This document shows positions 273 through 54,840 of a stretch of 64,000 bases of DNA, one piece after another. Positions within the stretch are counted from its first letter, which is position 1; every line of letters begins with the position of its first letter. Source of the stretch: a virus (lineage: Duplodnaviria; Heunggongvirae; Uroviricota; Caudoviricetes). The stretch is from positions 29,173 through 93,172 of the IMG/VR virus record IMGVR_UViG_3300021399_000107, one strand, 5' to 3'. The translations under genes were made by a program, and so were the position numbers. The notes below the pieces were generated by a model, which was not told where the DNA came from, made no database searches, and worked only from the letters and a program-made list of their open reading frames with translations.

Positions 273-4018
<3,746 letters not shown>

Positions 4019-4033: not shown

Positions 4034-5554
4034 TTGGGTCAGCCACATAACTTTGAAGCCTTTAAAAAGGCTGCACGTGAAAAGCGCCCGAAGGGCTTAG
4101 CGCCAATCGACGCTCGCACAATTAGGACTCATTCCTATTATAAAAATGAACCAGTAGCTCGAGATTTTACCCTCGATCAAATTCTTGACATTATTCGTTC
4201 TGGCGACCTAGAATTAATGAGGGAGTTATCTCGCTATTATTATAGAACCAACGGTGAATATCGTAATAATGTAGATTTTCTCGCGCATTTACCATTATAC
4301 GACACCGTGGTAGTACCTCTTGTTTCTGACAAAGGATCAAAAAATAGTCACCTAAAAAGTTTTCAACAGGCTTGTACGTTTATTGAAAACCTCGATCTTC
4401 CTAACACCCTAGCCCGCATTACCACCGAATGGCTAAAGGTGGGTGAGTATAATGGGATTCTAAGAACTGATGGCGTGCGCGCCACTATTCAAGATCTGCC
4501 TCTTGAATACTGTCGTAGTCGCTTCAAGGATTTAAACAATCTTAACGTTCTTGAATTTAATGTCACCTATTTTGACCATATTTTTGATGAAAAATTGCGG
4601 GCTGACCTGTTAGCGACTTTTCCAGAAGTAGTGCAAGTAGCTTATCGGCGTTGGTACAAAAGTGACCGCAAGCTGGACCCTTGGGTCATCATTCCAGCGG
4701 CAGATGGTGGTATAAGTTTCTTCTTCGCTAATGATCGCACTCCTCTTTTGCTGGCTTCCATTCCTGACTTGAAAAAGCTCCAGGATGCGGTGGCGCGCGA
4801 AGAGAAGCGTGACGAAAACGAACTCTATAAATTGCTTATTCAACGTATGCCAATAGATAAGCAAGGTGAGCTTGTTTTTCAACTAGATGAAGTTGCAGAA
4901 ATTCACTCGTCTGTTGCCGATATGCTGTCCGATCTCGATACGGTAGACGTTCTTACTACTTTCGGTGAAGCATCACTTGAAAGTTTGCAAGAGACTTCTG
5001 CCGCGACACAATCTGCTGATCGTATTGCAAAATACAAGAATAATGCGTATGATGCTTTAGGCCGTAGTTCTCTTATCTTTAATGCGGACGGCAGTTCTGC
5101 CCTAGCCTATGCCATAAAGAAAGATGAAGCATTAATGATTGCATATCTTAATGTTTATGAAACGTGGCTAAAGTTTCATCTAAATGATAAGTTCGCGCGC
5201 ACAGGCATTAATTTTGATTTTACAATCCTATCTACAACTGTTTTCAATCGAGAAGACTTGCAATCTACTTATTTCCGTGGCGCACAATACGGATATTCAA
5301 AAATTTTTGCTGGAGTTGCAATGGGTATTAAGCAGCAAGATCAACTTAGTCTCATGGAATTTGAGAATGATTATTTAAATATGTCAGAAAAAATGATTCC
5401 CTTGCAGTCGTCTTATACCACGTCTGGTTCAACAGTATCACAAGAAGCGCAAGGTAAAACTCAAGTTAATGGTAACAATACGGGCGGTCGCCCTGAACTC
5501 CCCGATGAAAAAAAGTCTGAAAAAACTCAGGCAAACATTGCGGCCGCAGGATAA
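4034..5554 (+). CDS. Portal protein (506 aa)
   Basis: Directly follows terL; RBS GAGGT with TTG start; size and N-terminal LRELSRYYY...YRNNVDFLA segment fit phage portals. Confidence 0.8.
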   Translation: MGQPHNFEAFKKAAREKRPKGLAPIDARTIRTHSYYKNEPVARDFTLDQILDIIRSGDLELMRELSRYYYRTNGEYRNNVDFLAHLPLYDTVVVPLVSDKGSKNSHLKSFQQACTFIENLDLPNTLARITTEWLKVGEYNGILRTDGVRATIQDLPLEYCRSRFKDLNNLNVLEFNVTYFDHIFDEKLRADLLATFPEVVQVAYRRWYKSDRKLDPWVIIPAADGGISFFFANDRTPLLLASIPDLKKLQDAVAREEKRDENELYKLLIQRMPIDKQGELVFQLDEVAEIHSSVADMLSDLDTVDVLTTFGEASLESLQETSAATQSADRIAKYKNNAYDALGRSSLIFNADGSSALAYAIKKDEALMIAYLNVYETWLKFHLNDKFARTGINFDFTILSTTVFNREDLQSTYFRGAQYGYSKIFAGVAMGIKQQDQLSLMEFENDYLNMSEKMIPLQSSYTTSGSTVSQEAQGKTQVNGNNTGGRPELPDEKKSEKTQANIAAAG

Positions 5555-5566
5555 AGGAGCATACAA

Positions 5567-6775
5567 ATGGATAGACAAATTCCTATTTATTTTGATAGTG
5601 TCCTTATTGCTGATGCTCCCATGCAAGAAATTCCAAATACAAATTCAACCACTTTTCGCCTACGCGTAGGTGCGTTTTATAAGTATAAAAACCGCAATGG
5701 TTCTTACATAACTGATGAATATGCCGAAAAGCTGATTCAATCGGCCACCAGAGGTAATGTTCCAGTAATTGGTTTTTTCGACCCTGAGACGCAAGATTGG
5801 GCTTCACATACTGGTCCAACATTAGCTAGCGCCTATGGTTATGTAGAAGATTTTCTTGGTTGGGAGCCAATGACAGACACGGATGGAGAGACGCGGGAGT
5901 ACGCAGTATTCTCGGTTGTTATCTTCTCCGATTATTACGAGGAAGCGCGCAAGATTAAAGGTCAGAATCAAAGCATGGAAATCAATCCGGATACGATTGA
6001 GGGCGCATGGGCTGATTTTGATGGCGAACCCTATTTTGTGTATACACAGGGTGATATGTTAGGATTTTGCGTTATTGGTTCTCATGAACCTTGCTTCTCT
6101 GTCTCTTCTTTCTTCTCTAAGAAGGATGATGAATATAAAACTCAATACGACAAATTCTCTTCACTTCTGTCTGAACTCAAGGCACGAGTGAACGAGGCAG
6201 AAAAAGGAGGGGAACATCCAATGGATGAGACTCAAGTTGTAGTAGAAGAGGAATCTACTGCTGTGGAAGAAACTCCTGCTACCGAAGTCGTAGAAGAGGT
6301 TGTAGAGCCTGCTGCCGAAGAGGACACTCCTGTGGTAGAAGAGCCTGCGACTGATTTTGAAGCCATGTATAATCAGCTGCGCGCCGATTTCGATGCGCTT
6401 CAAACCAACTACGATGCCGCTCAGGCCCGCATTGGAGAACTTGAAACCTTTCAGGCGGAAAATGCTGACCTCCATGCGCAGATTGACACCCTACAAGCGA
6501 CTATTGATACTTATGCGGCTCAAGCACTAGAAGCCGAGAACGCGCGCAAGGCGACTCTTCTTGACACCTATGAGAGCCGTATTACCGATACAGACGCTTT
6601 TAATATAATTAAAGAGGGCGCAAGCGATTTCTCCTATGAGGTTCTTGAAAGTAAGCTTGCTATTCTCTTTTCTAACGAACAGCTTAATAAAGCTGCTGAT
6701 GAAACTATTGTTCCGCTTCCTGAGCAACCAAAATCAAGTTTTGCTCTACTAATGGAAAAATATAAGAAAAAGTAA
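5567..6775 (+). CDS. Putative prohead protease/scaffold protein (402 aa)
   Basis: Between portal and capsid; globular N-terminus, then E/T-rich linker and coiled-coil C-terminal half; RBS AAGGAG. Confidence 0.65.
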   Translation: MDRQIPIYFDSVLIADAPMQEIPNTNSTTFRLRVGAFYKYKNRNGSYITDEYAEKLIQSATRGNVPVIGFFDPETQDWASHTGPTLASAYGYVEDFLGWEPMTDTDGETREYAVFSVVIFSDYYEEARKIKGQNQSMEINPDTIEGAWADFDGEPYFVYTQGDMLGFCVIGSHEPCFSVSSFFSKKDDEYKTQYDKFSSLLSELKARVNEAEKGGEHPMDETQVVVEEESTAVEETPATEVVEEVVEPAAEEDTPVVEEPATDFEAMYNQLRADFDALQTNYDAAQARIGELETFQAENADLHAQIDTLQATIDTYAAQALEAENARKATLLDTYESRITDTDAFNIIKEGASDFSYEVLESKLAILFSNEQLNKAADETIVPLPEQPKSSFALLMEKYKKK

Positions 6776-9716: not shown

Positions 9717-11273
9717 CGTTTATCAGTCTCGCTTAAACCATTTAGGAGAAACAGTTGCCGAAAGAATCCGTAATGGCGGTTCGCGCTCTTTTGAAAAATG
9801 GAAGGCAGAATCGCCGCATACAATTCGTAACTTGTCTGTGGAACGTGGTATTTATTTTGACGGTATTCTTATTCGTAGTAAGGATAAGGAATATGAAAAA
9901 ATTTTGTTCCTGCATGTGTCCAACAATATCCCGCTGCTAATTGGGGATATTATGACTTGGACGCAAGATGATGGCACAGATGAGAAATGGATTATAGTAC
10001 AAGAAGAAAAGAAGGTAAATGGTACTTATCGTTCTTTTTGGGTTATTCGTTGTAATTATGAGTTAAAATGGATTGATGAACAAGGGCACTTGCAGAAATC
10101 ATGGGCGTATGTGGTGAGTTCTGTAGATTCTAAAATTAAAGGAAACTATAGAACGTGGCACAACCTAAAGTAATTGGGCATATAGCTTGCAAGAGTTATA
10201 TGAAAAGCTACTGAATTGCTGGGAAGTTCTAATGCTTTTTACACTACAGCATAAAATTTATGTGATAAATTTAGGTGCGATAGTAATGAAAATAAAAAAA
10301 GTAAAAAGATGGTATATGCTGAAAAGCTAAGTATCGTAGAATGAATTATCAGCAGCCAAGCTCGAAAGAGAAGGTTCAGAGACTATCCAAATGGAGTAGG
10401 GATTATCCCGAAGCGGTAGCCTTCCTAAGGGAAGAAGATATAGTCCGAAAAAGAAACGCTTCTTTTTGAATTACGCCACAGCCTAACAAGTATGCCGAAA
10501 TTCTGATGCCTCGTTATCCAATTGCGCGCTCAACTAACTTCATTATTGAAGATGAATCTTGGGCTGTTATTGAATACGATCATACAAGTGTGCCCGGCAC
10601 AATTTATCTATCCCTTACTGAAAATAAAATCAATCGATATTATGATGATACGGTTGCAAATATTGCTGATACAGATAGACGCGCAGTATATAAAGCCGTA
10701 TTTCCAGATATACCTCATTCATTTAGCGTTGGGGAACCTATTGTTCCAATTCATTATACTTTAATGAAGAATGGCGTTGAGTGTGATACTGTTGAGGTTG
10801 AGTTTGATTCTACTGATAAAACTATTGCGCGAAAAGTTAATGGTGTGCTAACTGCTATTAAGGAAGGCGATGTAGATTTACATCTAACGTTAGTAGGCAT
10901 CAATGAGCCTATTGATCCTGAGTACATTAGCATCCATATCGGTGAAGATTTTACGCCTAGCGCCTACATTGATGGCCCTGATTATATTAGAGTTTCCGAA
11001 GATGGGCAATTTAGGTGCGTCGCCACAGATAGAGTTGATTCTAAGGGCGATGAATCAGAAACAGAAGTTGTACCGATGGAAGTTTCATTTAAACTTGGCG
11101 CGCAATCGGAGCCTAATTTGGTAAAATTGAAAAAAGATACCGATAATCCTTTACAAAATAGTTGCACTATTTATGCGAACAAGAAGGGGAAACTTGGTAC
11201 GTTTGAATTAATTATGACTTACGAAAATGTTGATTATATAAAAACCATTTCCGTAGTGCCATTGTGGCGGTGA
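9703..11273 (+). CDS. Putative head-closure/neck protein with C-terminal Ig-like region, split by 1 group I intron; spliced 422 aa
   Basis: Exons 9703-10166 and 10469-11273 total 1269 nt; join gives RTWHNL|ITPQPNKYAEILMPR in frame. Function inferred from position. Confidence 0.75.
10167..10468 (+). ncRNA. Group I intron 5, ORF-less, 302 nt
   Basis: P1 CCT|AA...TTGGG; P10 AATTA/TAATT; AATTGCTGGGAA, ATCAGCAGCC, TTCAGAGACTA, GATATAGTCC; ends in G10468. Confidence 0.9.
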
Positions 11274-11788
11274 TAGTTATGTACGATATTAAAGACCCTA
11301 GCCAAAGACGTTTTGCTGTTATGGGCACGAACATTTTCCATATTGCGGAAAAACTTGTTCATAATCAAACTATTTGCCGTCTTTTAAAATATCCAACCAA
11401 AGATGCTTTAGATACAAACAAGTATCCAAATGTTGATGGTGTAGAATTAATTAATAAACAAATTCTTATCGTTCCTAAAATTTATGACGATGAGAATACA
11501 AAAATGTCATATGTTGTCGCGCTATTTAATAACTTTTCGGTGAATCCGTTCAACAGTGATTTTAAATATTCCACGATTCGTTTTGATATTGCATGTCCTT
11601 ACGATGAGTGGATTTTGGATAACGAATCCTTGCGGCCTTACTTAATAATGCAAGAAATTGACCGCGAATTTAATGGCGCAAAAATTGGAGGTATTGGAAA
11701 TCTGGCTTTTATCTCTGCGGACGCATTAACATTGTCTCCGTGGATTGGCGGTTATACTATGAGGTATCAGGTTAATGAATTTAACTGA
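11264..11788 (+). CDS. Putative tail terminator/completion protein (174 aa)
   Basis: Position upstream of the tail tube gene; start codon uncertain. Confidence 0.45.
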   Translation: MAVIVMYDIKDPSQRRFAVMGTNIFHIAEKLVHNQTICRLLKYPTKDALDTNKYPNVDGVELINKQILIVPKIYDDENTKMSYVVALFNNFSVNPFNSDFKYSTIRFDIACPYDEWILDNESLRPYLIMQEIDREFNGAKIGGIGNLAFISADALTLSPWIGGYTMRYQVNEFN

Positions 11789-12542
11789 TGATGATATTCT
11801 CAAGTTTCAACGCGGTACTCCAATACTTTTAGACGACATATGCGCGATACATAATCATACAATAGGCGAAATAATTGATATTGGTTATGACAAGTTTCAA
11901 CAGTACTTAAATGTTATACTAATGCACAAACCAGTGATTAAAGATAAAACGCCTATTGCCGAAGTAATACAATCCTTAACGGATTTTCAATATTTGTTAA
12001 TGCTAGTTGAGACCGACATTCAGATGCGCGATTTGGTCAAAGAAGCTTTTTACTTCTTTCTCCAAGATGATGTTACATTTTCTTTGGAGCCAGCGCAAAT
12101 TATAGTCGGGCCGCTAAGCGAAAAACACTTTCTCGACGAAGGCAAATTCTATGACTTACAGAAGATTGTGCGTCATATGTATTTCATAGATTTGGACAAG
12201 GATGACATCATTATTGATCCTAATGATAGTCCTGCTGTCCGCGCCCTAAAAGAAAAAATGCGCGAAAACCGAGAAAAACTACAAAAAGCAAAGGCCAAAA
12301 AGGCGGCGCAATCTAAGAATGAATTAAAATTTTCTGACTTAGTGGGCAGCGTTGCTTTGGTTTGCGGCTTGCAGAATACTTGGAACATGACCTATTATTT
12401 TTTTAACGATCAGTTAAAACGAATGGGTTGGCGCGAACAGTTCGATATTAATAATCGAGCCGCTATGGCCGGAGCGAAGTTAAAGAAAAGTCAGTTGAAA
12501 CATTGGATTCGTTCGATTGACAGTGTAGATAATAAATCATGA
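11775..12542 (+). CDS. Hypothetical tail-module protein, possible assembly chaperone (255 aa)
   Basis: Coupled to the upstream gene; basic helical C-terminus with WNMTYYFF motif. Confidence 0.5.
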   Translation: MNLTDDDILKFQRGTPILLDDICAIHNHTIGEIIDIGYDKFQQYLNVILMHKPVIKDKTPIAEVIQSLTDFQYLLMLVETDIQMRDLVKEAFYFFLQDDVTFSLEPAQIIVGPLSEKHFLDEGKFYDLQKIVRHMYFIDLDKDDIIIDPNDSPAVRALKEKMRENREKLQKAKAKKAAQSKNELKFSDLVGSVALVCGLQNTWNMTYYFFNDQLKRMGWREQFDINNRAAMAGAKLKKSQLKHWIRSIDSVDNKS

Positions 12543-12565
12543 TTTATTATTGGAGGTAACTCGTA

Positions 12566-15500
12566 ATGGCTGATGTGAATATTTTTGAGAAGTACGGTAA
12601 ACTAATGCCGCATTAAAATTATTTTAATGAAAAATTTTGTGAATTGCTGGAAAGTCCTAAAGCTTATTTACTACAACACAACGTGTAAACGTAATTGTGA
12701 AAGTTTGAAAAATAATAAGATTGGATAATCAGCAGCCAAGCTAAGTTATTACTTAGAAGGTTCAACGACTAAGAACGAACAAAAGCCTGTTTCGTCTGCG
12801 CAAAACTTTAATGATATTAAAGAAGATATAGTCTGAGCTTTTATGAAAATAAAAGAGATCGTAAAGGTGCGATCGTAACATACTGATTAAAGAGGTGGCT
12901 AACGTCTATTTCGAGGCCCTCGAAACCGACACTGCCGCTGGCGTCTATAAGGACGACATCGTGCTATACCTAGATTCTCTAAAGGTTTCTACTATTGAAA
13001 CCACCGCAGAAGATACTGCGGCCCAGGGCGGTTGGGGTAATCCGCGTCTAGTTGTGTGGGACTTCAATAAGGAAATTAACATCACTCTTGAAGATGCTTT
13101 AATTTCTTTTGAATCTCTGCGTTTCATGGTCGGTGGCGCAATCCATAAGCCGAAGACCAAAGAACCTGTTATTGTACGTCATAGTGAAGAAGTTGTATGT
13201 ACCGCTGGTGGTATCGTACCTAAGCCCAAGGAGCACCTCTCTCTAGTAGAAATGACTCCTAAGGCTACTGTAAATCACCCGATTCGTCTTATTAACCTAA
13301 CTAAGGGTACTCGTACTCAGCTAGTTGCTGCAAGCGCGAGCGACACCTCTAAGGTTATTGACGGTACTACTGCTATTGACTTTAAGAACTCCGCTCTTAT
13401 TGACAATGCTGCGACTTCTGCTCCTACTACTTCCGTAACGACCGCAGAGGGCGACCACATTCGTATTTTCTGGGATGAAATTCTTGTCGGCGACAATGCT
13501 GAGACTGAAAGCGCCGTTGAAGTTACTATTTCTCCCAACACCTTAGAATATGCCTGGTGAGGTGTATAAAAATTATTAATTGCTGGAAACTCCTATTTAG
13601 GACAATCAGCAGCTAGGAGCGTAAAGATAATGAATAAACAATTACCAAAGAATGGTTATGGATATATTTACAAATATACCTCTCCATCTGGTAAGTCATA
13701 TATAGGACAAACCATTACAAGTTTATATAATCGCGCAGGCGGCTCGCGTGGTAAGACTTATATTAAATGTCCTGTATTTTATAATGCAATAATCAAGTAT
13801 GGCTTTTCTAATTTTGATGTTGAAATTTTAGTTGAAGCACCAATTTCACAATTGAACATCCTAGAAAAAAAGTATATTGAAATTTTTAATACTTTGGTGC
13901 CTGATGGATATAACATTCAAGAGGGCGGTGAAGGTGGCAATACCAAAATTGTTTATCAATATAATATGGATGGGCAATTTGTGCGACAGTTTAATAGCGT
14001 GCGCGAAGCCGCTGATTCAATAGGGCGAGAGCCACAAGGAATTAGCGATTGCCTGCATGGGCGCGCACTTAGTTGTGGTAATTATTATTGGAGCCTTCAA
14101 AAATTAGAAAAATATCCAATTGCCGAAAAAACTGATTTTTTAAAGATTCGTAATGATAAAAAACAGGTTCGGATGCTAGATTTAAATGGCAATTTGATTC
14201 GTACTTTTAAGTCGATTGGTGAAGCGGCTAAATTTTGTAATGGTGAACGAAGTGCGATTAAGCGCTGTTGCCGCCATGAATTACATACCTATTGTGGTTA
14301 TAAATGGGAATGTAGCGAAATTTTAGCTGAAAAAAAGTACAATAATAGTGCGCGCGCAATAGAGCAATTAGATAAAGAAACTGGTGAAGCTATTAAAACT
14401 TTTCCTTCTATTAGCGCGGCGGCGCGTGAATTTCATAAGAATGGTACTTCACTTTTTCGACGTGCATTAAATGACATTCATTATTCTGCTTATGGATATA
14501 AGTGGAGATACGCTCAGAGTTCAACGACTATAAGCCTTTAAAATGCTAAAGGTTAATGTAATTCTTTGATGATATAGTCTGAACTTCATAGAGATATGAA
14601 GATGCTTAGCAAGCGATAACATAATGCCCAGGCACGTATCGTGTCATTGGCGATACGTTCATGCGTTCTGAAAAGACTGGTAAGGACGAAGCGTTCCAGT
14701 TCGTCATTAATAAGGCTGAGAGTACTTTGGCCGCTTAATAAGTAATTATTATGAATAAATACACTGTGAAATGCTGGAATTTCTAAAGCTAATTTGACCA
14801 CAACGCAGTTAGACATAACAATCGTGATGGTTTTAAAAACTAAATTAGATGTAACAATGAAAAAATCAGCAGCTATATAGATGATATGTAGTTCAACGAC
14901 TATCTCAAATGAGAGTACGTTTAAGCAAACGGAAGCGCAGTGCTCCACTTCGGTGGATGAAGATATAGTCTAAACTTATAGGAAACTATAAGCCCTATGG
15001 GTAAGATTTAGCGAATCTTATTAAATATAATGAAGGTTCTTTCTGACGTAACTATTACGTTGGAAGCCGAAGGCGATCCTTCCACGAATCTATGGCTTAG
15101 GGCGGCATAATAAATGTGGAAGTAAAAATATGTGAATTGCGGGAACTTCCTGAAACTTTGATTACCAAATTATATTAGCAATAATATAATGGCTTAATTA
15201 ATCATTAAGGTATGGTAAAAAGATTAAAGTTTGGACAATCCGCAGCTAAGAATCTATAAAATAAGCGAGGTCAAATATGAACTACTTAGATTATAAACAA
15301 GCACCAAAAGATGGTTATGGATGGATTTATAAATATACTAGCCCATCTGGGAAAAGTTATATTGGACAAACTATTTATTCTTTATATGATCGAGCCGGAT
15401 TAAATGGTCGATGTTATAAAAATTGTTCTGTATTCTATTCTGCTATTCAAAAATATGGATTAGAAAATTTTACAGTTGAAATTTTAGACCAAGTGCCCAA

Positions 15501-16246
15501 AGCATTGCTAACAGAAACAGAAAGTTATTATATAGAAAAGTATCAGACATTATTACCTAATGGATATAATTATTATCGAAAAGGCAGTGGGCACCGAGAA
15601 TTATTACGAACAAAGACGGCTGTAGATGTTTATGATTTAGATCTTAATTATATTAATACATTTGATAGTTTGATCGAGTGCGCAAAATTTTATAATATTC
15701 CTTATCAAGCCATTTCTAGTTGTATTAATAATAATATAGATCATTATAAAGATAAAATATATACAAAAAAAGGACAATCACCAGTGGCTGCGCATGTTCA
15801 TTTAACACATGGTAGAAAAACAGCTCAGTATTCTTTAGATGGTACTTTAATTGCTATTTATAAATCCGCGAATGAAGCAGCGAGATGTATTGGAAAAAAT
15901 TCTAATGCCGGTAGAAATATTCGTGCTGTTTGTTCAGGAGATAGACAAACCGCTTTTGGCTTTAAATGGAAATTTATAGATTAAAGTTCAACGACTACGT
16001 AAGTTCAAGCGAACTTCAGTGCATATCCCAGTAAAATGGTGATGATATAGTCTCACCTTTATGGAAACATAAAGAAAAAGGCGTAGCGAGCCTTATAAAG
16101 ATAAATGATTTGAAATGTCCCTACAGGTTCTAAAGGCTACTAACGAGCGCGGCGAGCCTGAAATGATGAAGTTCATTCGTTATCAGATGGGTGTTGGTGC
16201 TTCTACTGATGCCGGTAACGATGAAGGTTCCATTCATCAGTCTTAA
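12566..16246 (+). CDS. Major tail tube protein, split by 4 group I introns; spliced 324 aa
   Basis: Exons 12566-12598, 12886-13544, 14627-14717, 15033-15085, 16108-16246 total 975 nt. Joins FEKYG|IKEVA, SPNTF|PGTYR, INKA|KVLSD, GDPST|FEMSL. RBS GGAGGT; highly expressed codon pattern; followed by a terminator. Confidence 0.85.
12599..12885 (+). ncRNA. Group I intron 6 (tube-I1), ORF-less, 287 nt
   Basis: P1 CGGT/GCCG; P10 ATTA/TAAT; AATTGCTGGAAA, AATCAGCAGCC, TTCAACGACTA, GATATAGTCT; ends in G12885. Confidence 0.92.
13545..14626 (+). mobile_element. Group I intron 7 (tube-I2) with GIY-YIG ORF, 1082 nt
   Basis: P1 ACACCTT/GAGGTGT; P10 CCAGGCA/TGCCTGG; full core motifs; ends in G14626. Confidence 0.93.
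13630..14541 (+). CDS. Intron-encoded GIY-YIG homing endonuclease with NUMOD1-like repeats (303 aa)
   Basis: GYIYKY...KSYIGQT motif, E in LEKKYI, three V.Q.d..G..i..F.S..EAA repeats. Confidence 0.9.
   Translation: MNKQLPKNGYGYIYKYTSPSGKSYIGQTITSLYNRAGGSRGKTYIKCPVFYNAIIKYGFSNFDVEILVEAPISQLNILEKKYIEIFNTLVPDGYNIQEGGEGGNTKIVYQYNMDGQFVRQFNSVREAADSIGREPQGISDCLHGRALSCGNYYWSLQKLEKYPIAEKTDFLKIRNDKKQVRMLDLNGNLIRTFKSIGEAAKFCNGERSAIKRCCRHELHTYCGYKWECSEILAEKKYNNSARAIEQLDKETGEAIKTFPSISAAAREFHKNGTSLFRRALNDIHYSAYGYKWRYAQSSTTISL
14718..15032 (+). ncRNA. Group I intron 8 (tube-I3), ORF-less, 315 nt
   Basis: P1 GGCT/GGCC; P10 AAGGT/ACTTT; AAATGCTGGAA, AATCAGCAGC, TTCAACGACTA, GATATAGTCT; ends in G15032. Confidence 0.92.
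15086..16107 (+). mobile_element. Group I intron 9 (tube-I4) with GIY-YIG ORF, 1022 nt; 5' junction probably at C
   Basis: AATTGCGGGAA, AATCCGCAGC, TTCAACGACTA, GATATAGTCT; ends in G16107; in-frame join DPST|FEM requires exon end C15085 (P1 CCAC/ATGG). Confidence 0.82.
15277..15984 (+). CDS. Intron-encoded GIY-YIG homing endonuclease (235 aa)
   Basis: GWIYKYTSPSGKSYIGQT, clearly paralogous to 13630-14541; NUMOD1-like repeats; RBS GAGGT. Confidence 0.9.
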   Translation: MNYLDYKQAPKDGYGWIYKYTSPSGKSYIGQTIYSLYDRAGLNGRCYKNCSVFYSAIQKYGLENFTVEILDQVPKALLTETESYYIEKYQTLLPNGYNYYRKGSGHRELLRTKTAVDVYDLDLNYINTFDSLIECAKFYNIPYQAISSCINNNIDHYKDKIYTKKGQSPVAAHVHLTHGRKTAQYSLDGTLIAIYKSANEAARCIGKNSNAGRNIRAVCSGDRQTAFGFKWKFID

Positions 16247-16262
16247 TTGACTGTATAAATAC

Positions 16263-16296
16263 AATGCCTGCGGCTTTGCCGCAGGCATTTCTTTTT
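16263..16296 (+). terminator. Rho-independent terminator after tail tube gene
   Basis: AATGCCTGCGGC-TTT-GCCGCAGGCATT followed by TCTTTTT. Confidence 0.8.
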
Positions 16297-16308
16297 GAGG
16301 TAAAAATA

Positions 16309-17235
16309 ATGCTTATAGACGAATACGCTGGTCTAAAAGAGTTGTATGAGGTTGTGGTAAAAGCTACCGCACCAATTACAATCAATGGGCGCCAATTTGA
16401 AATTGGTGAGCCAGTGATGTTTTTTGAGCGTGTCAATATGTCATTATTAACTCAATCTGCATCACCCATTTCCGCGCGCGGTGGTTGGGATAATTTGCCG
16501 CGTGTTGTGTGGGAAAATCGTTCTGACGTTAGTTTCATGATAAATGAAGGCGTAGTATCTAATATGAGCTTAAATTTTCTTTTATCTGCTTCAACAGATA
16601 AAAAAGAAAATGATACTAGCTTTTTTGTTCACAAAGTGGATAAAGTGGACGAACCTATTTTTGTCGATATAGATGATGACAACACTATCTGTATTGTGGA
16701 AACTTCCCATGATCCACACTTAAACCCTCCCTCCTACAAAGCTTTTATTTATCGTGACGATAATGATGTATTGCAGCAAAAATATTATGGGAAGCCGCTG
16801 GATGAAGAACATGCGCGTCATGATTTCTCTGGTGCGGTTATTCCTAGTTTTCAATTATTTCGAGATAAGGCATTAACAGAACCGGTTTTACCTGGTGACG
16901 AAGATGCCAGTTCTCCCTATGTTGTGGATTACTATTATTCTTATGGAGAAGGCACGGCTATTATTTACACCGTAAATAAAGAGCGCTTTAATGGAGTATT
17001 TGCTTTAGAAGGAAAGTTTTATTCTAAAGACGAAAACCGTGGCATTAACAGAACGAATTTAATCTATATGCCACGTATGAGAATTGTAAGTGATATAAAC
17101 TTACGTTTGGGAGAAAGGGCCGATCCAACCACCGCGTCATTCCACATTATTGGTATGCCGCAATCTACAACTGACTACAAGAATATGGTATTGCAAATTA
17201 CCTCTCTTGATAAGGATATAGATGAAGAAGAATAA
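16309..17235 (+). CDS. Tail-tube paralog (308 aa from ATG 16309)
   Basis: Aligns by eye with the spliced tube protein: EYAGLKELYEV vs EKYGIKEVANV; ARGGWDNLPRVVWE vs AQGGWGNPRLVVWD; IVSDINLRL..ADPTT vs VLSDVTITL..GDPST. Confidence 0.7.
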   Translation: MLIDEYAGLKELYEVVVKATAPITINGRQFEIGEPVMFFERVNMSLLTQSASPISARGGWDNLPRVVWENRSDVSFMINEGVVSNMSLNFLLSASTDKKENDTSFFVHKVDKVDEPIFVDIDDDNTICIVETSHDPHLNPPSYKAFIYRDDNDVLQQKYYGKPLDEEHARHDFSGAVIPSFQLFRDKALTEPVLPGDEDASSPYVVDYYYSYGEGTAIIYTVNKERFNGVFALEGKFYSKDENRGINRTNLIYMPRMRIVSDINLRLGERADPTTASFHIIGMPQSTTDYKNMVLQITSLDKDIDEEE

Positions 17236-17301: not shown

Positions 17302-20300
17302 ATGGCTAATAAAACACGTACCGTGTCTTATGAAGTACAATTAGCGATAGAAGGAGCAACAAAACAAATTGCACGCTTGAAGCAACTTTTGAATGATAGC
17401 GTGCGGCCCGAGAGTAACTCGTACAAAACATTACTGAATATGCTTAGTGCGGCCCAACGGCAAGCTGAACGTCTGCAAATGACGGCAAGCACGTCATTGG
17501 AATCCTCTAAAGGGTCAAAAAAGCTAAGCGCCGATCTATTTAAACTTGGCGATTCTATTGATATTATTGTAACGCGGATGCACCAGATTGCTTCTGGTGA
17601 CATAATTGCATCACCAGAAGAGTTGGCGCGCATTGAAGAAATGAGTAACTCAATGGTGAAGATTCGTCAGCAAATGGACGCCTTACAAAATCTTAGTGTG
17701 GGCGATATGTTTGACGAAGGCACCGCTGAAATGCAACAAATGCAAGAGGTTGCGAAACTTTTGGGGCGCGATCTTGACACCATTAATGCTGATAAGATGC
17801 AAGGTGCCATTGGGCACGCATTGGATAAAATCAATAGTGACATTGACCGCACCTCGGCGCGCATAGATGCCCTACAAAAAGTGCTAGATAAAACTACTGG
17901 CATTAATGGGCCGACCGCTTTAGCTGAGATTCAGGCCACCGGTAATAAGTTTGCAACAACGGTAGCCACGAAGGATCAGCAAGAGCGCCAACGTACAGCT
18001 AATGAGATTAACAAAATACGGACTAGTTTCCGTGATGAAGCTGCTGCTCGTGGTTTCCTTTCTCCACGAGACGCTCGACGCGATGTTACAATTTCAGCAT
18101 CTAGCTTTGATAATAAAAACGACCAAACAATTCTTGAAGATCAAATGAACGCGATAGAAGAGTCTGTTGCTGAGCATACCGCAGAATTACAATCTCGCGT
18201 CCAAAAATATAGAGAAATTGAACAACAGCTGGGTGAAATTTGGAAAAATGCGCCAAGAGGACAGCGCACTGAGTATCTTACTCAATTCGCTCAGAAAGAG
18301 CCGCAATTGGGTGCTATTTTAAATCAATTAGGTTATGAAGGAAATGTTGATGAAATTATTGCTAATCGTGGTGGATTAGGAAATACAAATGCTCTTATTT
18401 CTACGGTTCGTCATCAGTTACTAGAACAGGCAAATAATGATGCACAAACTGTTCAAGAAATGGTACAGAAATTAGATCAATATCGCCAACAGCTTGAAAG
18501 CGCTATTTTTAGTAATTTAAGTGAAACGCAAATATTGGAAAAAGCCAATATTAAACCTTTTATTACAAATTTACAACAGTATGTAAATGATTTGTTTGGC
18601 GAAAATAATCCGCTTTCCCAAAGTATGGGACAATGGTTAAAGGATCACGTACAAGCTGGTATGGATGTCCAACAGTTTTATCGTGATTTCTTACAAGAGA
18701 TTATACAAAAACGTAGCGAAATTGAGCAACAAATTCGTTCTGAATCGGATGCTCTTAATAACTTGGGCGGTCAGAAGAATTTGTTGGAAAGCGCTTCTAC
18801 TTCATTAGATGATCAAGTAAAAAAGTTAAAAGATGAGGTTGAGCAGCTCCGCGAACAAATAAAAAAGTATCAGGAGCAACTTGACGCGCTAACAAAAGGG
18901 AAGAAGGCAAATTTTCAACGTGAGGTTGAGACGCCTGGTTCGCCAAATGAGCCGACGCCGGCTGACACCAGCAAGAGAGTCAAGGATACGGGTAATCTCG
19001 TAGGTGCCAACAGCGACAATCTTGCTAACACCGAAAAAGTTACTTCACAATTAGGTAATATTAAATCAGCAATAACCAACTGGATGGGCTTCTATCAGGT
19101 ACTAAATATGACGCGTAGCGCCATTACTAGCATGAAGAATCACATCCAAGAACTAGATCAAGTCATGACACAAATTGCTGTGGTCACAAGTATGACACAA
19201 GAGGACTTGTGGGCGCAGATTGGTACGTACAGCGAAATCGCCCGTCAATATGGTGTAAGTATTAAGGGAGTGTATCAGGTTTCGCAGATCTTCTACCAGC
19301 AGGGTGGTAGTTTTCTGGAAAAATTTCTTTCATTTTCTAAGATTTGACTTTTTGTGAAATTTCTGCTATAATATTTTTGTAAGGCGAGAGAAGAACAAAT
19401 AAAAACACCAGCCTTACAAGGAGATTTCACAAAATGCAAGAGAAAACAATTTATATCAATGGAGAACCAACTGACTACACCGTTCGAGACGACGGAACCG
19501 TATGGAGCAACAAACGACATCGTGAACTTAAAGGTACCTTGGCGCGCAATGCTTATCATACTGTATATCTTATGTTTCACGGTGAACAAAAATGTTTGAT
19601 GGTACATCGACTTGTTGCTGAAGCCTTTTGTCCAAATCCAAATGGTTATACGATTGTTCATCATAAGGATGAGAATAAGCTAAACAACCGTGCGGATAAT
19701 CTGGAGTGGGTTACGAGTCAAGAGAACGCCGTAGCTAGTGTACCTAGTCGCAAGCCATATAAAGCTTATGATAAGCAGTTAGCTGATCCGCAAAAAGAAT
19801 GGCGCGTACTTTCGTGTAATGAGAATTACCTTATTAATAATGAAGGAGAAGTGGCCAACAAAAAGACGCTTACTCTATTACACCAAGCTGATCGTAATGG
19901 TTATAAAAGAGTAAATCTTCAAGACACTCTTTATAGCGTCCATCGTCTCGTCTATGAAACTTTCATTGGCCCTATTCCCGAAGGCATGAAAGTTGACCAT
20001 ATTGATGGCAATCGTTCCAACAACAATGTTGCGAATTTGCGCCTTGTGACGCAATCGGATAATATGCACGCAGCTATGACTAATGGTCATTCTGGTCAGG
20101 TTCCTGTTCTTCAATTTGATAAAGATTGGAATTTTATTCAGGAGTTTCCCAATATCCAAGCGGCCGCAGATGCGGTGCATCGCACGCATCCCGCTATTCG
20201 TTCAGCGATTGAGCGTGGCGGAAAAAGCGCTGGATACTATTGGAAACGTAAAAATAGTGAGCCTTGTGACACCCTTTAATTGCTGGAACATCCTCTAAAA

Positions 20301-23300
20301 TCATGCTATAGGACAATCAGCAGCCAAGCCCATATATGGGAAGGTTCAACGACTAGCCGACTGTCAAGGTCGGGGTAGGCGCAAGCGCGCCGAAATGGGG
20401 GTGGCGTTTTACACACGTTAAGATATAGTCTGATCTTGTAAGAAATTACAAGCTGGAATAATTCCGCTGGCGGCGCAGCGAACCGTCAGGAACGTAATGC
20501 TACAAACAAATGATGTCATGACGTTAACAACGGAAACGTTGAAGATGGCGCGCATTGCGGGCATTGATTACGCAAAGGCGGCCGATTATATGACAACCGC
20601 TTAACGCAATAGGTGGTTTAAAAGTGTTTTAATTGCTGGAAAACATTAAAGCCCAAATGCCACAAATAAAATCATTCCGTTTTATATTGTGGAACGAAAG
20701 TAGAAACAAGTTTTGGGATGGCGCATGGTATTAAACCTAAACGTTAAAAATATGAAATCAGCAGCCAAGGAGGAATATATATGGCTAATAAATTTTCTCT
20801 TGAAGAATATAAGAATCGTATTGATATGTTTTTTCCTGATTGGAACTATGAGATTTTAGAGTTTAATGGTTATAAGCAAGCGGCTAAAATTTTATGTAAA
20901 AATTGTAATAATATTTTAATTTATAAGAAAGCTTGTGATATTAGCAGAAAATTAAATGTGTGTAAATGTTATCACAAATTTAATAATTATCACGAAAAAT
21001 TAATATATCTTGGACAAGTCAATGGTTTTACTATTCTGCATGATGAACCAAATAATATGATAAAAACAATTCGTTGTGACAAGTGTAATACTATTATGGA
21101 GCGCTCTTTAGTATCGCTTCTTAATACGCCATTTCATTGTGATAAGTGTAATGCTTATCGAAAAGGGCAATTTCATTATAACATTGAAGAAGCTCAACAA
21201 CGTTTAGATACAGCTACTAATAATGAGTATCAATTATTGCAGTATAATGGTATTAATAAAGAAGCCGTTTTGCGACATTTAAATTGCGGTTTTATTTTTA
21301 CTATTCGTGATTTAAATGATATTTTTATTGGTAGAAATCGGGGTTGTCCAAAATGCTATCAATTTAAGTCTAAAGGTGAGCAAAAAATTGCAGCTTACTT
21401 AGATAACAAAAATATAAAGTATATACCGCAAAAAACATTTACACCATTAAATAAAAGTAAATATCGTTTTGATTTTTTTCTACCCGATTATAATTTAGCA
21501 ATTGAATATCAGGGAGAGCAACATTATCGTGACAATTCTTGGTTCAAAGATGATTTAAGTACGATTCAAAAAAGAGATCAAATTAAAAGGCAATATTGTC
21601 AAGAAAATCATATTAATTTATTAGAAATTAGTTATAAAGATTATAATATTATTAGCCAAATATTAGACTCACGGTTCAACGACTATCCTTTTATGGGAGT
21701 AGAGGAAAGCTCCTCGAAATAAACACTACCAGATGGTAAAGATATAGTCTGATCTTATTAGAAATAATAAGCCGTATGTTATACGCGCATAATTTAGCGA
21801 ATTATGTGGAACATTAATGATCCGCGGTTTCAAATTGGAAATGACCGATGCTTCCCACGTTACTGACGTTTGGAGTGCATTGGCAGCAAAGACAGCATCA
21901 GATACAGAAGAGTTGGCAGTCGCTATCAGTAAGACGGCATCGTCCGCCGAAGCTGTGGGCGCAAGCTTCGAAGCTACTTCTGCAATGATTGCAACGATGG
22001 TCTCCGTAACGAGAGAGAGTGCCACGAACATCAACATTTGACTTTTTATTAAATATTTAATAAGGAGTTACCGGTGTCCTTATGAGATAATACATAAATC
22101 ATAAGTGAAAACCTTCTCTGATTGACTTGGAGTTCCTAATAATAGAGGATAACAGGGCGGAAGATTGGTTTAAATACCTTTCACCGTGAACGACTAAGTG
22201 AGAAGGCACCTTTTCTGAAGGTGGTGCGATAGTCTAAACTCCTACTATAACTATTATATTTTTTGAAATAGGGGAAGAAGGCAATTTTGTCTTCTATAAT
22301 GCGGTACGTCACTCAAATCGGTTATCTCACGATACGGAGAAATGACAAGTGATCCCTCAAAGCTAACCGACAGTGAAGGCGAAGCAATGGATCTGAACCG
22401 TGTCGATAAGGCTTTGAAAACAATCGGTATTACGTTGCGTAGTGCCACAGGACAATTCCGTGAATTTGATGACGTCATCCTTGAATTGGGTGAAAAGTGG
22501 AATCAAATTGATGTAAATGCGCAACGTTATATCGCCACGATAATGGCTGGCAACCGTTATGATTTGTTGGCGGTTGCGTGAGCAGCCTTAATAATGAACT
22601 CAAATTAAAATGACGTGAATTGCGGGAACATCCTTAAAACTATTTTCACTAAGCACAAGCAGAAATGTGTTGTGTGGTCACAGTAATGAAGTTGGGTATA
22701 GTAAAAGCAGAATAGTTTGGACAATCCGCAGGCAAGCATCTTTTATGTTTGACTTTTTTCTTTTTTTGTGATATAATAAAAGAAAAAAAGGAGAACAACG
22801 CTAATGTTTAAAAAAATAATCTTAGATGGCGAAGTAACACGATGGTCAGTAAATGAAGAAGGGCAAGTAAGGAATGATGAGACGGGGAAATTTCTTACGG
22901 GTAGTATTCTTCAGACTTATAGATACATAAATTTTAGATGGAATCATAAGCAAAAGAATAAAGCAGTTCATAGATTAGTTGCTGAAGCTTTTCTTCCTAA
23001 TCCTGAAAATTTACCTTATGTACATCATATTGATGGAAATAGGTTAAATAATAATGTAGAAAATTTACAATGGGTTACTCAAGAAGAGAATCAATCTCAT
23101 AGAAAAACATATACAATTCATGCGCCTCAAAATATTATAATTGAAGGCCAGGAAGAGTGGCGTAATTTTAGAGATACGGTTTATCAAGTTTCTAATTATG
23201 GACGCGTGCGTAATACTAAAACAAATAAGATACTTAAAGGTTGCTTAGAGGATTGCGGGTATTATACAATTAAAATTCCGTATAACGAGAAAAAGCGTAA

Positions 23301-50195: not shown

Positions 50196-53100
50196 TTCTC
50201 ATCATCTCCCAATCTTTCATATTGGAACGTTAAGTTACCCTGTTCATCTATGCTGGTAATCTTAGAAATTATCGGCAACGTAGACGAACTTCGCTTCTTT
50301 GGTATAAAAGTGTTTTCACGTCTTATACCTTGAATCATGAGTTTGTTACCACGCGTTAACCAACTCTTTTCCAGAACATGCTTCTTACCATCTTCGCCAA
50401 TTTGTGAAATTTGCTTATCATACATGGCGAATTGGTTCTTATAGATTTTTACTGTAACTACACCAGTTGGCGTTAGTAGCGTTACGGTATTATGAATCTT
50501 ATCTTTATCAATTACTGTGCCAATAATTTGATGAAGACGCCAAATTTTTACTTCATATCCTTTATCAGTAATAATACTACGTTCCAATTCTGGCGTTTCG
50601 GGCAGGAGATAAAAATCATCATACTTGCGCGCCGCCTTGGCTAGTTCATGCGTGTGGTAATAGAAACTAATTGAATCCATTTCCCACTTACTAATCGTAC
50701 CTTCTGTATACTTTTCAGCAACTTCATCATATAATGATTGATTCAGTGCCGCAAGCATGGTATCCTGATGCTCCTTTAGGTAGGCGCGCATGGGTTCCAT
50801 AGCTTTCTTATAAAAGTTATCCCATGTTTTTTGCAGAATTTTGTCTCCATCTTCTGTCATATTAGCATCAAAATGAGACGCGATAAAGTCAAAAGCGGCC
50901 GCATTGAGTTGATAATAAACCCCATTCTTTTGCGTCTTTAAGAACTTATTGAATAAGAAGAGCTTCTTATATTCAATCATTTCATCAGGAATGAGATTTT
51001 TATCAATAAGCATCTGCATATTTTGTAAGGTTAGGCGCGTTTTCTTATCGGCGATAGACTCCAAATAGTCGTGCATAATTTCTTCTCGCGGCTTATTTTC
51101 AACGTGATCAAACGCCCCTGACTTAATTAGGTTTAGGGTTTGTAGCTTATTCGTTTGATTCTTTGCGAGAAAATCATTTAGTGACGTATAAGGACGATTG
51201 TCAATGATTTGATGGATTAGTGCTACCGGGATACGAGTGATACCTCGTAGGCCATAAATAATCACGTTGTTCTTTGCATCCGGTACAAAAGTAAAGCTAG
51301 ATTGATTGATGTCTGGCGGCATTACGGTGATGCCGCGATTCTGGAAATTACCAATCGCTGACGCAATTTTTCCATAATCTGTATTCTTCGTCTTTACTTT
51401 CTTGCGGCCTTCCTCTTCATCGCTTTCATCCTCATCGGTTATTGTTTCTTCATCATTATCTTGATACTCATCTCCACCGCTATTGGTAATAAGACAAGCA
51501 GTGTTCCAATAGATAATGGGATAGTAGGTGGTAAGAACAAGAATCTGGATTGCAATAAAACTGTAAGCAAGTGCGTGCGTTTAGATTCTAAACTGACTAT
51601 TTCTTACGGGTCATTATTTTGAAGTGCCACTTCAACACCCGCACACCGTTTCGAGCAACGTATCAATAATTGCTCTACTCTCCCTCTAACAGGAGATAGT
51701 CGATACAACTTTTATTCAAAACTTTTTGAATCTTTGTCACGAGATTTTACCCTCGTTAGCTATATACTACCTTATCTGGCTAGGATTTAGGCATACTTGT
51801 ATATAACCCCATTGATGAAATGGTTAGGTGTGTAAGCCCCATCACAAGGCTCTGCAAAAGCATATGATAGCTGCGGTTCTATTGCACTAAACCAAACATA
51901 TTCTCCAAATTCTTTACGCGGACATTGAGAAACGAATCTTTCTTTTAGTTCAGGAATTTTATTAATCAATTTTTTGGAGCACACCTTACGCGCAGCATTA
52001 GCTTCTGCCAGAGTGAAATGCGCGATGTGCTCATCCATACACAATAGCATCAACTTTTCCTGCGTAGTTGGTACTCCCGATACAGGAAGGTAATACGGTT
52101 CTAGAACCTTAATCTCCTCATCCGTCAAACCCCAACTTCTACATTCCTGATACCAAAGTTGCATATCGTTCTTGAAGCGAACATATTTTTCAATCGGTCT
52201 TTCTTGACCAGGTTCGCCCGCAAGACGCGTAAGCGCGTTTGCCATCATTAATTGAAGTGGATTGCGTGGTAAAATTGATTGAATGGCTTGGCCGCCAACC
52301 TGCGAATCAAATTGAAACAAATCGACAACTTGACGACTAGCAAGAGTATCCCAAATCTTGTCATCTTCAATATTTAAAACATCAGGATGCAAATACCGAT
52401 TATAAATGTCACGAAGATTCGTACATTCACTAAAATACCCATCATTGCGAAGAAGCGTAATTGCGTTAATGAGTTTATCACAAATTTCCGTGACTAGGAA
52501 ATCAAATTTCGTGTCCAGTGATTCCATTGTTTCCAATGGCCTTGACTATCTCTTACTCTCATAGTGAGAGAACACCATTTCGAACCGCGTATCAATAGCG
52601 GCCCTACTTCCCTTCGCGGGAATAGTCGATACACACATACTACTAATTAGTATTTGGCTCGGGATTACCATATTTAAAAACTTAGGTTTCCCCGATAGCT
52701 ATTTATTATCTAAATAACCCCGCTGATAAACGGTTAGATGTTAGGCGGCAATGTCACTTACCGCATGCTTCAGCCGCATGTAGCGAAAACTGCGTAGTCA
52801 AATCGCCATTCGGGCTCCTCATTACTGCATCGCTATTCCAAGGATCGTCATTATAAAGAATAACACCAGATGCGTGCTGGCTCCTTTTATTTACAATTCC
52901 TTCAATACCAAATGCAATATCCAAGAGACCCGGATACTTATTCATTTCATCAATGAACTGTTGCGATGGCTGTCTGCCTTTTTCTTCATTACCATAAATC
53001 ATATCATGAAGCGGCCACAAAAAACCTCGCTCCTGAGGAATAAGACTTGCAATATACTGCGCCGTATCGTTATCAATACCGTCAGGAAAATCGTCCGAAC

Positions 53101-54840
53101 GATAACCACGACAAGCCGCAAGAATACCACTCTTCGTTCCTTCGGTGCCAAAAGTTGCAACTTGCAGCACGCGAAGTTCGCCACGCTCTTCTCGAATCTT
53201 TTTAAGAATCAGAGGACGCTTCGATGGTGCAAGGTCGATATCAATATCCTTATTACTACCTTTAATTTCTTAAAGGAATAGACTATCTCTTCACATTACG
53301 TGACTGGCGCTACGAAATGGTGCTTATCTCCATTTCTCTCGACGAAAGTCATTTAGTCGTTACACCTTTTTTCTTGGCACGGTATTGTCTTGCTCTTTCA
53401 AGTTTAGATTTCCACCGTTAGCACGCTTGCGCGCACACCGTTAAGCAACGTTCACCAGTTTTTACTTGCCCAATATTGTTTAGGCAACTCAATTCTTTCC
53501 TTATTCAGAAAACGCCAATAATTTAGAGTCCATTTTACCGGGTCTAGCTGTGTAATTCCGAGTAACATATTCGATAAGAAACAAACGCTACTGCCGCGAC
53601 CTGGCCCGACAATGCTTCCGCACTCCCAAAACAGATTGATGAAATGGTGAAATGTATTGAAATACTCGAAAAGACAAACATCCCACTTCGTTCCAATTGT
53701 TTGAATAACATCGGCTTCGGTTTCAAGTCTTTTCACATATTTCACGTCAGTATTGAAACCGCGTCTTACCATTTCAGCCCAACATTCATTGATCCAATAG
53801 CGCTCCTGCACGTTTTCCGACATAAACAATGAATGAAGAACAGGATATTCACTAAGCGTATCTTTTTGCGGCCAAACCTTTACATCAACGTGAGGAATGA
53901 TAGGATTATGAAAGATTTCATATGACTGAATCTTATCATAAATTTCCATTGAATTGGCACACATTTGCGCGCAAAGTTCATCATCATAACCTGCTTCAAA
54001 AAGATAACCAAACGCTTCATTATTGTCCATTAGGTGCGAAAATTCATAAAAAGAGTCAACTTCACGCTCACCCTCCTTTGAATTTAGATATGCCTTATGA
54101 ACAAATCGGTCGCTCTTCTTTAAATAATGAGCATCTACACCATAAATCATCTTGATGCCAAAATGGCGCGCAATAGATACTACTCGTTTATTATAATAAA
54201 CTTGTTCCTTACTAAGGCCAGGCGCAACTTCAATATAAAAGTCAGAACCAAAAAGCGAGAGACAAAATTCAAGAAAACGATTAACATTATTGCGGCACTG
54301 CGCAATCATCTCTTCATCTTTACGATTCTCGGCTTGCTGCAACGCTAAAATATTTGATTGCAGTTCGCCCGCAAGACACGCATTTGTGGCGATTAAATGA
54401 CCGGGATTTTCGCGCACAATAGTTTCCAGTTCTTTCTTTAACGTTGGCACTCGTTCCATACCACGATCATAATAAGAATTATACCAACTTTGAGAAGAAA
54501 GCTTGCACAGCTGACGAAAACCAATTGTGTCTTTTGCAATCAGAATAAAGTGATAATAGGATTGCTTTTGTGCGCGTTCATTCACCAGATAGATTTCATT
54601 GCCAAGGCCGCATTTAAAATCCTTTGGAATAATCTCTTTTTCTTTTAATTCTTTTTCAAATTGTAGCCATTCCACGGCTCCGCTCAGACATTCATGATCT
54701 GTCAAACAAATGCCTTTTAGATTCAATTCTGCGGCCGTCGTAATCATATCACGCGGCCGACAGATAGAATCAAGAAGTCTGAGATTGCTATAAAATGAGT
54801 GCGCATGAGTTTCCATTCGAGGAATATCATTATAATTCAC
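50192..54840 (-). CDS. dnaE: DNA polymerase III alpha subunit (family C), split by 3 group I introns; spliced 1300 aa
   Basis: Exons 54840-53482, 53248-52760, 52515-51847, 51577-50192. Joins ERIELP|DIDID (catalytic Asps), EACG|DTKFDFL, YAFAEP|HALAYS. PHP motifs HAHS, TDH, GNEIY, DAHY; GPGRGSS; HASGV. Confidence 0.96.
51578..51846 (-). ncRNA. Group I intron 17 (dnaE-I3), ORF-less, 269 nt
   Basis: P1 AGCCT/GGGCT; P10 CACG/TGTG; CTAACGAGG, AATCTCGTG, GTATCGACTAT, AAATAGTCA. Confidence 0.92.
52516..52759 (-). ncRNA. Group I intron 16 (dnaE-I2), ORF-less, 244 nt
   Basis: P1 GCGGT/GCCGC; CTATCGGGG, AATCCCGAG, GTATCGACTAT, AGATAGTCA; terminal G. Confidence 0.92.
53249..53481 (-). ncRNA. Group I intron 15 (dnaE-I1), ORF-less, 233 nt
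   Basis: P1 TTGCCT/GGGCAA; P10 GATATTG/CAATATT; CTAACGGTG, AATACCGTG, GTAACGACTA, AGATAGTCT. Confidence 0.92.

Follow-up and report, generated by a model that had tools for sequence, protein, structure and literature searches.

The subject of this analysis is a split gene at positions 12566-16246 of a 64,000-nt stretch of phage DNA (the window, to which all coordinates refer), itself positions 29173-93172 of the 165,344-bp IMG/VR virus record IMGVR_UViG_3300021399_000107, which is 96% complete. Sequence profiles and a predicted structure identify the gene as encoding a tail tube protein, and four group I introns divide its coding sequence into five exons, all on the plus strand: exon 1 (12566-12598; 33 nt, residues 1-11, ending in U), exon 2 (12886-13544; 659 nt, residues 12-231, phase 2), exon 3 (14627-14717; 91 nt, residues 231-261, ending in U), exon 4 (15033-15085; 53 nt, residues 262-279, phase 2, ending in C) and exon 5 (16108-16246; 139 nt, residues 279-324 followed by TAA). 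Joined, the exons form a 975-nt frame (33+659+91+53+139) whose sole stop lies at its end and which encodes a protein of 324 amino acids (aa). A ribosome-binding site read from the sequence, GGAGG at 12552-12556 on the same strand, stands 9 nt before the ATG. The introns, of 287, 1082, 315 and 1022 nt and phases 0, 2, 0 and 2, add up to 2706 nt, or 73.5% of the 3681-nt locus.

A homologue search with exon 2 alone returned more than 1500 relatives, and nearly all of the best 120, which were inspected, are uninterrupted proteins of 301-337 aa; the spliced product is collinear with uninterrupted homologues of 316-334 aa. Exon 2, which holds most of the N-terminal half of the tube core together with an inserted beta-sandwich domain, matches phrog_2729 and is 73% identical to the homologue P0002 and 100% identical to P0001. 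The uninterrupted homologues begin MA..NIFDKYG/IKEVAN (a slash marks the junction) and read across the four junctions as KYG/IKEVAN, SPDTF/PGTY, INKA/KV and EGDPST/FEM; because they read through all four, the five-exon model is correct at the residue level. Every junction sits within an invariant or nearly invariant motif of the family, and the split gene is highly conserved: across 42 relatives, column identity averages 74%. An earlier reading of this DNA from its letters (the sequence-only reading) had proposed the same five exons, with 975 coding nt in 3,681 and 73% intron, the phases 0, 2, 0, 2 and the junction peptides YG/IKEVA, NTF/PGTYR, NKA/KVLSD and DPST/FEMSL. Our analysis reproduced that exon model to the base and confirmed the phases, and the uninterrupted homologues read the same junctions. 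Gene callers mis-annotate such split tube genes as fragments: the exon 2 open reading frame (ORF) with its read-through (12895-13560) is stored in public protein collections as the 221-aa P0001, and relatives have comparable truncated entries (P0071, P0112). A megablast search against phage genomes returned short intron-core matches only and found no close sequenced phage.

The locus is present in ruminant-gut sequencing runs, including three metatranscriptomes from two studies (X2, X11 and X18); X2 and X11 represent one sample, and X18 the sample that probably yielded the window DNA. Assembled contigs, rather than raw reads, constitute the RNA evidence, and these were mapped on 12400-16400. 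Each of the four exon joints was recovered: 12598>12886 in X2 record 10 (852 nt), 13544>14627 in X2 record 11 (1083 nt) and X11 record 4, 14717>15033 in X2 record 11 and X18 record 9, and 15085>16108 in X18 record 9. The joined contigs match the tabulated exon stretches with 0 mismatches, except for one in X11 record 4, and the last three joints carry no positional ambiguity. Exon 3 is joined on either side within one contig, and X18 record 9, which is 216 nt long, opens with 13 nt from the end of exon 2 and thus carries exons 2-3-4-5, or three joints, in a single contig that bridges exon 4 on both sides. The contigs of DNA run X3, in which 46% of the locus words are present, contain none of the four joints. 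X2 record 11 (window 12970-15449) joins exons 2, 3 and 4 and then continues for 364 nt into intron 4; it may equally well be a partly spliced intermediate in which intron 4 goes last or a chimera that arose in assembly across the 53-nt exon 4. Parts of the locus are without RNA cover (for example 14142-14543 in X2), depth is uneven among the introns, and contig depths cannot rank expression. The joints confirm that all four introns are precisely removed in nature.

All four introns, like the exons on the plus strand, match the group I covariance model RF00028 of Rfam, for which the gathering cut-off is 50 bits. Intron 1 (12599-12885; 287 nt) matches the full model at 76.5 bits (expectation value, E, 1e-18) and intron 3 (14718-15032; 315 nt) scores 58.9 bits; both exceed the cut-off and neither contains an ORF. 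Intron 2 (13545-14626; 1082 nt) and intron 4 (15086-16107; 1022 nt) match in their 3' cores only, at 14424-14601 (30.7 bits, E 5e-5) and 15822-16074 (40.2 bits, E 7.5e-8), respectively. The P7 strands GUUCAACGACUA and GAUAUAGUC are common to all four introns (12760-12771 and 12825-12833 in intron 1), and the P4 pairing covaries in intron 4, which has GCGG/CCGC as against GCUG/CAGC. Each intron ends in G, and each presents an in-frame stop 6-9 codons from its start, the one in intron 1 after 6 codons.

Guide pairings with both flanking exons can be drawn for every intron. For intron 1, the last four nucleotides of exon 1, CGGU, pair as P1 with GCCG at 12607-12610, leaving a U.G pair at the splice site, and P10 joins AUUA (12886-12889) to UAAU (12603-12606). 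Intron 2 pairs ACACCUU (13538-13544) with GAGGUGU (13559-13565), again with U.G at the site, and CCAGGC (14628-14633) with GCCUGG (13552-13557). In intron 3 the corresponding helices are GGCU (14714-14717) with GGCC (14729-14732), U.G at the site, and AAGGU (15033-15037) with ACUUU (14724-14728). The P1 of intron 4, CUUCCAC (15079-15085) with GUGGAAG (15116-15122), is Watson-Crick throughout, and its P10 pairs AUUUG (16108-16112) with UAAAU (15111-15115). The P10 helices comprise 4-6 bp, and their intron strands lie directly 5' of each P1 guide.

Compared with one another, the introns share core segments of about 30 nt and the 5' ends of the endonuclease genes described below (70% identity over 198 nt). 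The idea that they are recent duplicates of one another was rejected, for outside these segments they are unrelated, which points to four separate invasions. The 3' 74 nt of intron 3 (14957-15030) are 91% identical to positions 92052-92125 of Yersinia phage phiR1-37, and 39 nt in the same region are identical to Bacillus phage vB_BceH_LBC2. Given these matches, near-identical intron-core modules appear to circulate among unrelated phages of very different hosts.

Intron 4 differs from the other three at its 5' splice site, which is formed by a C15085-G15116 pair in place of the U.G of introns 1, 2 and 3. A U.G pair is near-universal at group I 5' splice sites, C-G being a rare exception, and replacement of U.G by C-G slows the first splicing step in model ribozymes. 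The final C of exon 4 is the second base of a Thr codon; this Thr is invariant in 42 relatives, and its codon is AC plus any base in 63 of 63 uninterrupted relatives. The C is kept because a U there would change the invariant residue, and coding constraint thus overrides the ribozyme's preference for U.G at this site. An exon 4 ending at U15091 would again have a U at the splice site and would lengthen the protein by two residues (..DPSTNLFEM..); we considered and rejected it: the homologues read DPST/FEM, no guide pairs with that end, and the RNA joint is 15085>16108. That contig joint likewise confirms the use of C15085. The same CUUCCAC/GUGGAAG helix occurs at the same Thr codon in two further loci, L078 (~3550-3620) and L079 (~4520-4590). 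To our knowledge, natural C.G splice sites have been described once before, in Aspergillus mitochondria; Hur and Waring reportedly found them in 1995 in natural mitochondrial introns of Aspergillus nidulans, and are said to have explained them by selection on the encoded amino acid. Those introns too have C-G, not U.G, at the site of 5' cleavage. They are fungal mitochondrial introns, whereas the site reported here belongs to a phage intron, is kept in three divergent phages and is confirmed in use by RNA.

The two long introns contain genes for homing endonucleases, both on the plus strand. The intron 2 gene (13630-14541; 303 aa) encodes a GIY-YIG N-terminal domain and three NUMOD1 repeats, with matches to phrog_314 (1.9e-24), to phrog_5123 ('GIY-YIG motif') and to PF07453 NUMOD1 (2e-21); the intron 4 gene (15277-15984; 235 aa) likewise combines GIY-YIG with NUMOD1. 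Their products are 40% identical, YIY/YIG N-terminal motifs are readable in both, and phrog_5123 (homing endonuclease with GIY-YIG motif) matches two ORFs at 1.8e-5 and 8.7e-10; PF01541 gave no match at E 0.01 in a Pfam scan of the endonuclease ORFs. The intron 2 ORF extends 23 nt into the ribozyme core (14519-14541), over the 5' strand of P7, GTTCAACGACTA (14519-14530). Owing to this overlap, a given RNA molecule should either serve to make the endonuclease or fold into the ribozyme, but not both.

The assignment of the host gene draws on family membership, remote homology and predicted structure. All homologues carry the Pfam domain PF27173 (YomU_Tube), and in relatives the genes are labelled YomW, YomV and YomU_Tube in succession, as in SPbeta. 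A profile built from 83 diverse members of the family matches the tail tube protein of phage SPR (8k98_A, 9jgh_A) at E 1.5e-11 over about 215 columns; the 8K98 chain is the Bacillus phage SPR tail tube protein, the trigger of DSR2 (PMC10973363). An AlphaFold2 model of P0002, computed from the 83-sequence alignment, has a predicted local distance difference test (pLDDT) score of 88 and supersedes an earlier structure model from 42 close homologues that was unusable (pLDDT 47.7). Foldseek searches with the P0002 model return the SPR tail tube (8xkn_B, E 8e-14; 8ygm_A; target template-modelling score 0.74), followed by the tail tubes of the siphophages YSD1, Chi, JBD30 and Mystique. Distant tblastn matches fall on the 'major tail protein' or 'tail tube protein' of 160-170-kb Tsamsa-like Bacillus siphophages, in the syntenic slot. 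Taken together, these profile matches and the structure model identify the split gene as a tail tube protein gene of the YomU/SPR family.

The order of the neighbouring genes agrees with this assignment. A portal gene (4034-5554) lies upstream and is followed by head genes, then by a YomW-like gene (11264-11788) and a YomV-like gene (11775-12542) directly before the tube gene, and a long coiled-coil ORF begins at 17302; the tube gene is thus placed between the head-tail joining genes and the coiled-coil ORF, in line with the usual location of a tube gene, which precedes the tape measure gene. Directly 3' of the tube gene stands a terminator-like hairpin of 12 bp, 8 of them G-C, followed by a T run (16263-16289, plus strand), and after it a tandem, divergent paralogue of the tube gene (16309-17235, plus strand), which matches phrog_2729 and aligns to the tube family in hhalign at 96.5% probability and 17% identity. 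The paralogue ORF opens at 16264, within the hairpin, but translation more likely begins at the ATG at 16309, which a GAGG precedes. L078 and L079 likewise have one more gene, of 288 or 292 aa, immediately after the split tube gene, where the paralogue stands in the window.

Introns at the four window sites were found in none of 76 related IMG/VR loci. In four of these loci, L062-L065 (~5020-6000), an insertion of 0.8-1 kb interrupts the tube gene at residues 60-70 and marks a fifth site, empty in the window; weak group I matches lie at the 3' end of the insertion in L062, L063 and L065 (E 4e-6 to 1.4e-4), and the insertion in L064, which was scanned at the gathering threshold only, gave no group I match. 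The tube proteins of L078 and L079 are 60% and 67% identical to that of the window, and their introns occupy identical codon positions: L078 has introns at junctions J1, J2 and J4, the latter two with endonuclease genes, and L079 at J1 (with an HNH gene) and J4. Some database proteins are truncated, with a start or end at residue 12, 231, 262 or 279 or at one of several other positions; they suggest further occupied sites, although many could be contig ends. From these comparisons, the same conserved sites appear to have been hit repeatedly in divergent phages, as homing predicts, and we infer that the endonucleases drive this homing. The window gene holds the largest intron set among the tube genes examined, and introns are exceptionally abundant in this phage, whose genome has at least 17 RF00028 matches, 16 from a genome-wide scan and the intron 4 core besides. 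Further matches lie on the plus strand at 435-697, 2374-2476, 2744-2953, 3193-3405, 10157-10468, 20197-20452 and 21610-21771 and on the minus strand at 52523-52739, 53259-53491, 55365-55627 and 56767-56932, and HNH-type endonuclease ORFs occupy 1463-2452, 19434-20279 and 20781-21722.

We conclude, with a probability of about 0.93, that the locus is the tail tube gene of a roughly 165-kb SPbeta/Tsamsa-like ruminant-gut siphophage that was invaded by four independent group I introns. Each intron would have entered at a peptide motif that is highly conserved; a peripheral loop of introns 2 and 4 encodes a GIY-YIG/NUMOD1 homing endonuclease, and introns 1 and 3 are ORF-less. In the transcript, the internal guide of each intron would pair with 4-7 nt at the end of the upstream exon to form P1 and with 4-6 nt at the start of the downstream exon to form P10, and two guanosine-initiated transesterifications would excise each ribozyme and rejoin the mRNA to the 975-nt frame for the 324-aa tube subunit. 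The early in-frame stop in every intron would release ribosomes that had started on unspliced RNA. The introns probably splice themselves without host factors.

Several points weigh against this explanation. Introns 2 and 4 score under the Rfam gathering threshold, because ORFs in their P6 loops split the model. The contig-level RNA data are silent on splicing efficiency, strand and single molecules. DNA may be present in RNA libraries, and as the DNA comparison comprises run X3 only, an otherwise identical intron-less DNA variant is formally conceivable. Finally, a tandem paralogue of the same fold family lies 60 nt downstream, and the split gene is the presumed 'major' tube gene. The possible presence of DNA in the RNA libraries, the uninterrupted genes of most relatives (69 loci) and the restriction of the DNA comparison to run X3 would be compatible with joints that stem from the DNA or transcripts of a co-occurring, near-identical strain with an intron-less tube gene, in which case the window allele need not splice at all. 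We regard this as very improbable, for the joined contigs match the window without mismatch over 852, 1083 and 216 nt, whereas the known intron-less relatives reach at most about 75% protein identity, and the joints recur in three runs of two studies, one of them from the sample probably behind the intron-bearing assembly. The X3 contigs, with 46% of the locus words and 0 of 4 joints, argue in the same direction, as do the intact ribozyme cores, guides and terminal G in all four introns. A different objection concerns the role of the gene: the split gene might encode a minor or specialised tube-like protein, such as an initiator or terminator ring or a decorated variant, while the paralogue at 16309-17235 forms the bulk of the tube. 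Both genes match phrog_2729, hhalign gives the paralogue a 96.5% probability against the family profile, and a protein needed in many copies would be made more cheaply from a gene without introns. It is the split gene, however, and not the paralogue that closely matches YomU_Tube and the SPR tail tube; the paralogue has no PDB match by sequence and only 17% identity to the family. The split gene is also the one with 74% mean column identity over 42 relatives and the one that occupies the Tsamsavirus 'major tail protein' slot, followed by a strong terminator, and L078 and L079 too place their 288- and 292-aa genes after a split tube gene, at the position of the paralogue. A minor or specialised role is thus unlikely, and the split gene, rather than its paralogue, probably builds the bulk of the tube.

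The sequence-only reading had also taken the intervening sequences for ribozymes, the gene for a tail tube gene and the mRNA to require four splicing events, and these claims are upheld by the RF00028 matches of all four introns, by PF27173 with the SPR profile (E 1.5e-11), Foldseek (8xkn_B, 8e-14) and SPbeta gene-order evidence, and by the four joints in RNA contigs. Its further suggestion, that ordered splicing is likely because very short exons must supply both P10 and P1, did not hold. In exon 3 the P10 of intron 2 (14628-14633) and the P1 of intron 3 (14714-14717) lie at opposite ends without overlap, as do the P10 of intron 3 (15033-15037) and the P1 of intron 4 (15079-15085) in exon 4, and since P1 and P10 of neighbouring introns do not overlap, no splicing order is imposed. 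A regulated or ordered process, in which slow removal of intron 4 owing to its C-G pair, or skipping of exons 3+4 or 2+3, times or diversifies tube production, could draw on X2 record 11, from which introns 2 and 3 are removed and in which 417 nt run from exon 4 into intron 4, and on the slower first step with C-G in model ribozymes. That contig, the only hint of an order, is possibly a k-mer assembly chimera across the 53-nt exon. The sequence-only reading had noted that exons 2+3 or 3+4 could be skipped in frame, and the arithmetic stands: both skips preserve the frame, and the products are open (E1-E2-E5, 831 nt; E1-E4-E5, 225 nt). Actual skipped joints (12598>15033, 13544>16108 and others) were not found among the contig joints of the three RNA runs, in which assembly drops rare variants, and on the family alignment either skip would remove invariant strands of the core. 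Regulation by order or skipping is therefore quite doubtful. It seems still harder to credit that the load of four ribozymes, one with an intrinsically slow C-G site, acts as a kinetic gate tying tube production to the state of the cell (GTP, Mg2+, translation), or as a source of exon-skipped variants, with the endonucleases as weapons against co-infecting intron-less relatives.

The closest precedent for a tail tube gene invaded by self-splicing introns is orf142 of phage Twort, which encodes the tail tube, contains three group I introns and shows exon skipping, and a 2025 count lists just over 100 known phage introns, mostly in genes of nucleotide and DNA metabolism (PMC11878797). Both Twort orf142 and the present gene are phage tube genes with several self-splicing group I introns and very short exons. 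Twort is a myovirus whose 142-aa tube protein falls outside the YomU/SPR family and whose gene has three introns where the present one has four; the evidence here is metatranscriptomic and not in vitro splicing. The orf142 introns are reportedly ORF-less, whereas two of the four introns here carry GIY-YIG genes. The present locus thus goes beyond Twort in its unrelated tube family, one more intron, two endonuclease genes, a conserved C-G site and confirmation by environmental RNA. Introns 2 and 4 resemble the T4 td intron (group IA2) with I-TevI in that a peripheral loop of the ribozyme holds a GIY-YIG ORF, an in-frame stop comes early and the insertion site lies in a conserved coding motif (PMC3984707); here, however, the host gene is structural and not one of nucleotide metabolism, and the DNA-binding part consists of NUMOD1 repeats. 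The capsid and minor-tail introns of cluster J mycobacteriophages are likewise group I introns in structural genes of large siphophages that splice during late expression, but they occur one per gene, and the tail intron lies in a minor tail gene, not in the tube gene (PMC3706429). With YomU of SPR and SPbeta (8XKN, 8K98; PMC10973363) the tube protein shares PF27173, a predicted fold in which a second beta-sandwich is inserted into the beta-sandwich tube core, and the YomW-YomV-YomU gene order. Identity to the SPR protein is about 18%, and the SPR and SPbeta genes are not reported to bear introns.

The locus is a striking and well-supported example but mechanistically an ordinary one, GIY-YIG group I introns in phage genes being textbook material (PMC3984707). 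In its intron 4, a phage ribozyme uses a C-G 5' splice site that occurs naturally, is conserved and has been verified in RNA, an example useful both for ribozyme mechanics and for annotation rules, and the storage of its exon 2 as a separate protein illustrates that intron-aware annotation is needed for gut and rumen phages. For the phage itself, an uncultured virus with four introns in a single 975-nt structural gene, the finding shows that introns can make up 73% of a virion gene that is presumably expressed at a very high level, and that some of its exons can be as small as 33 and 53 nt.

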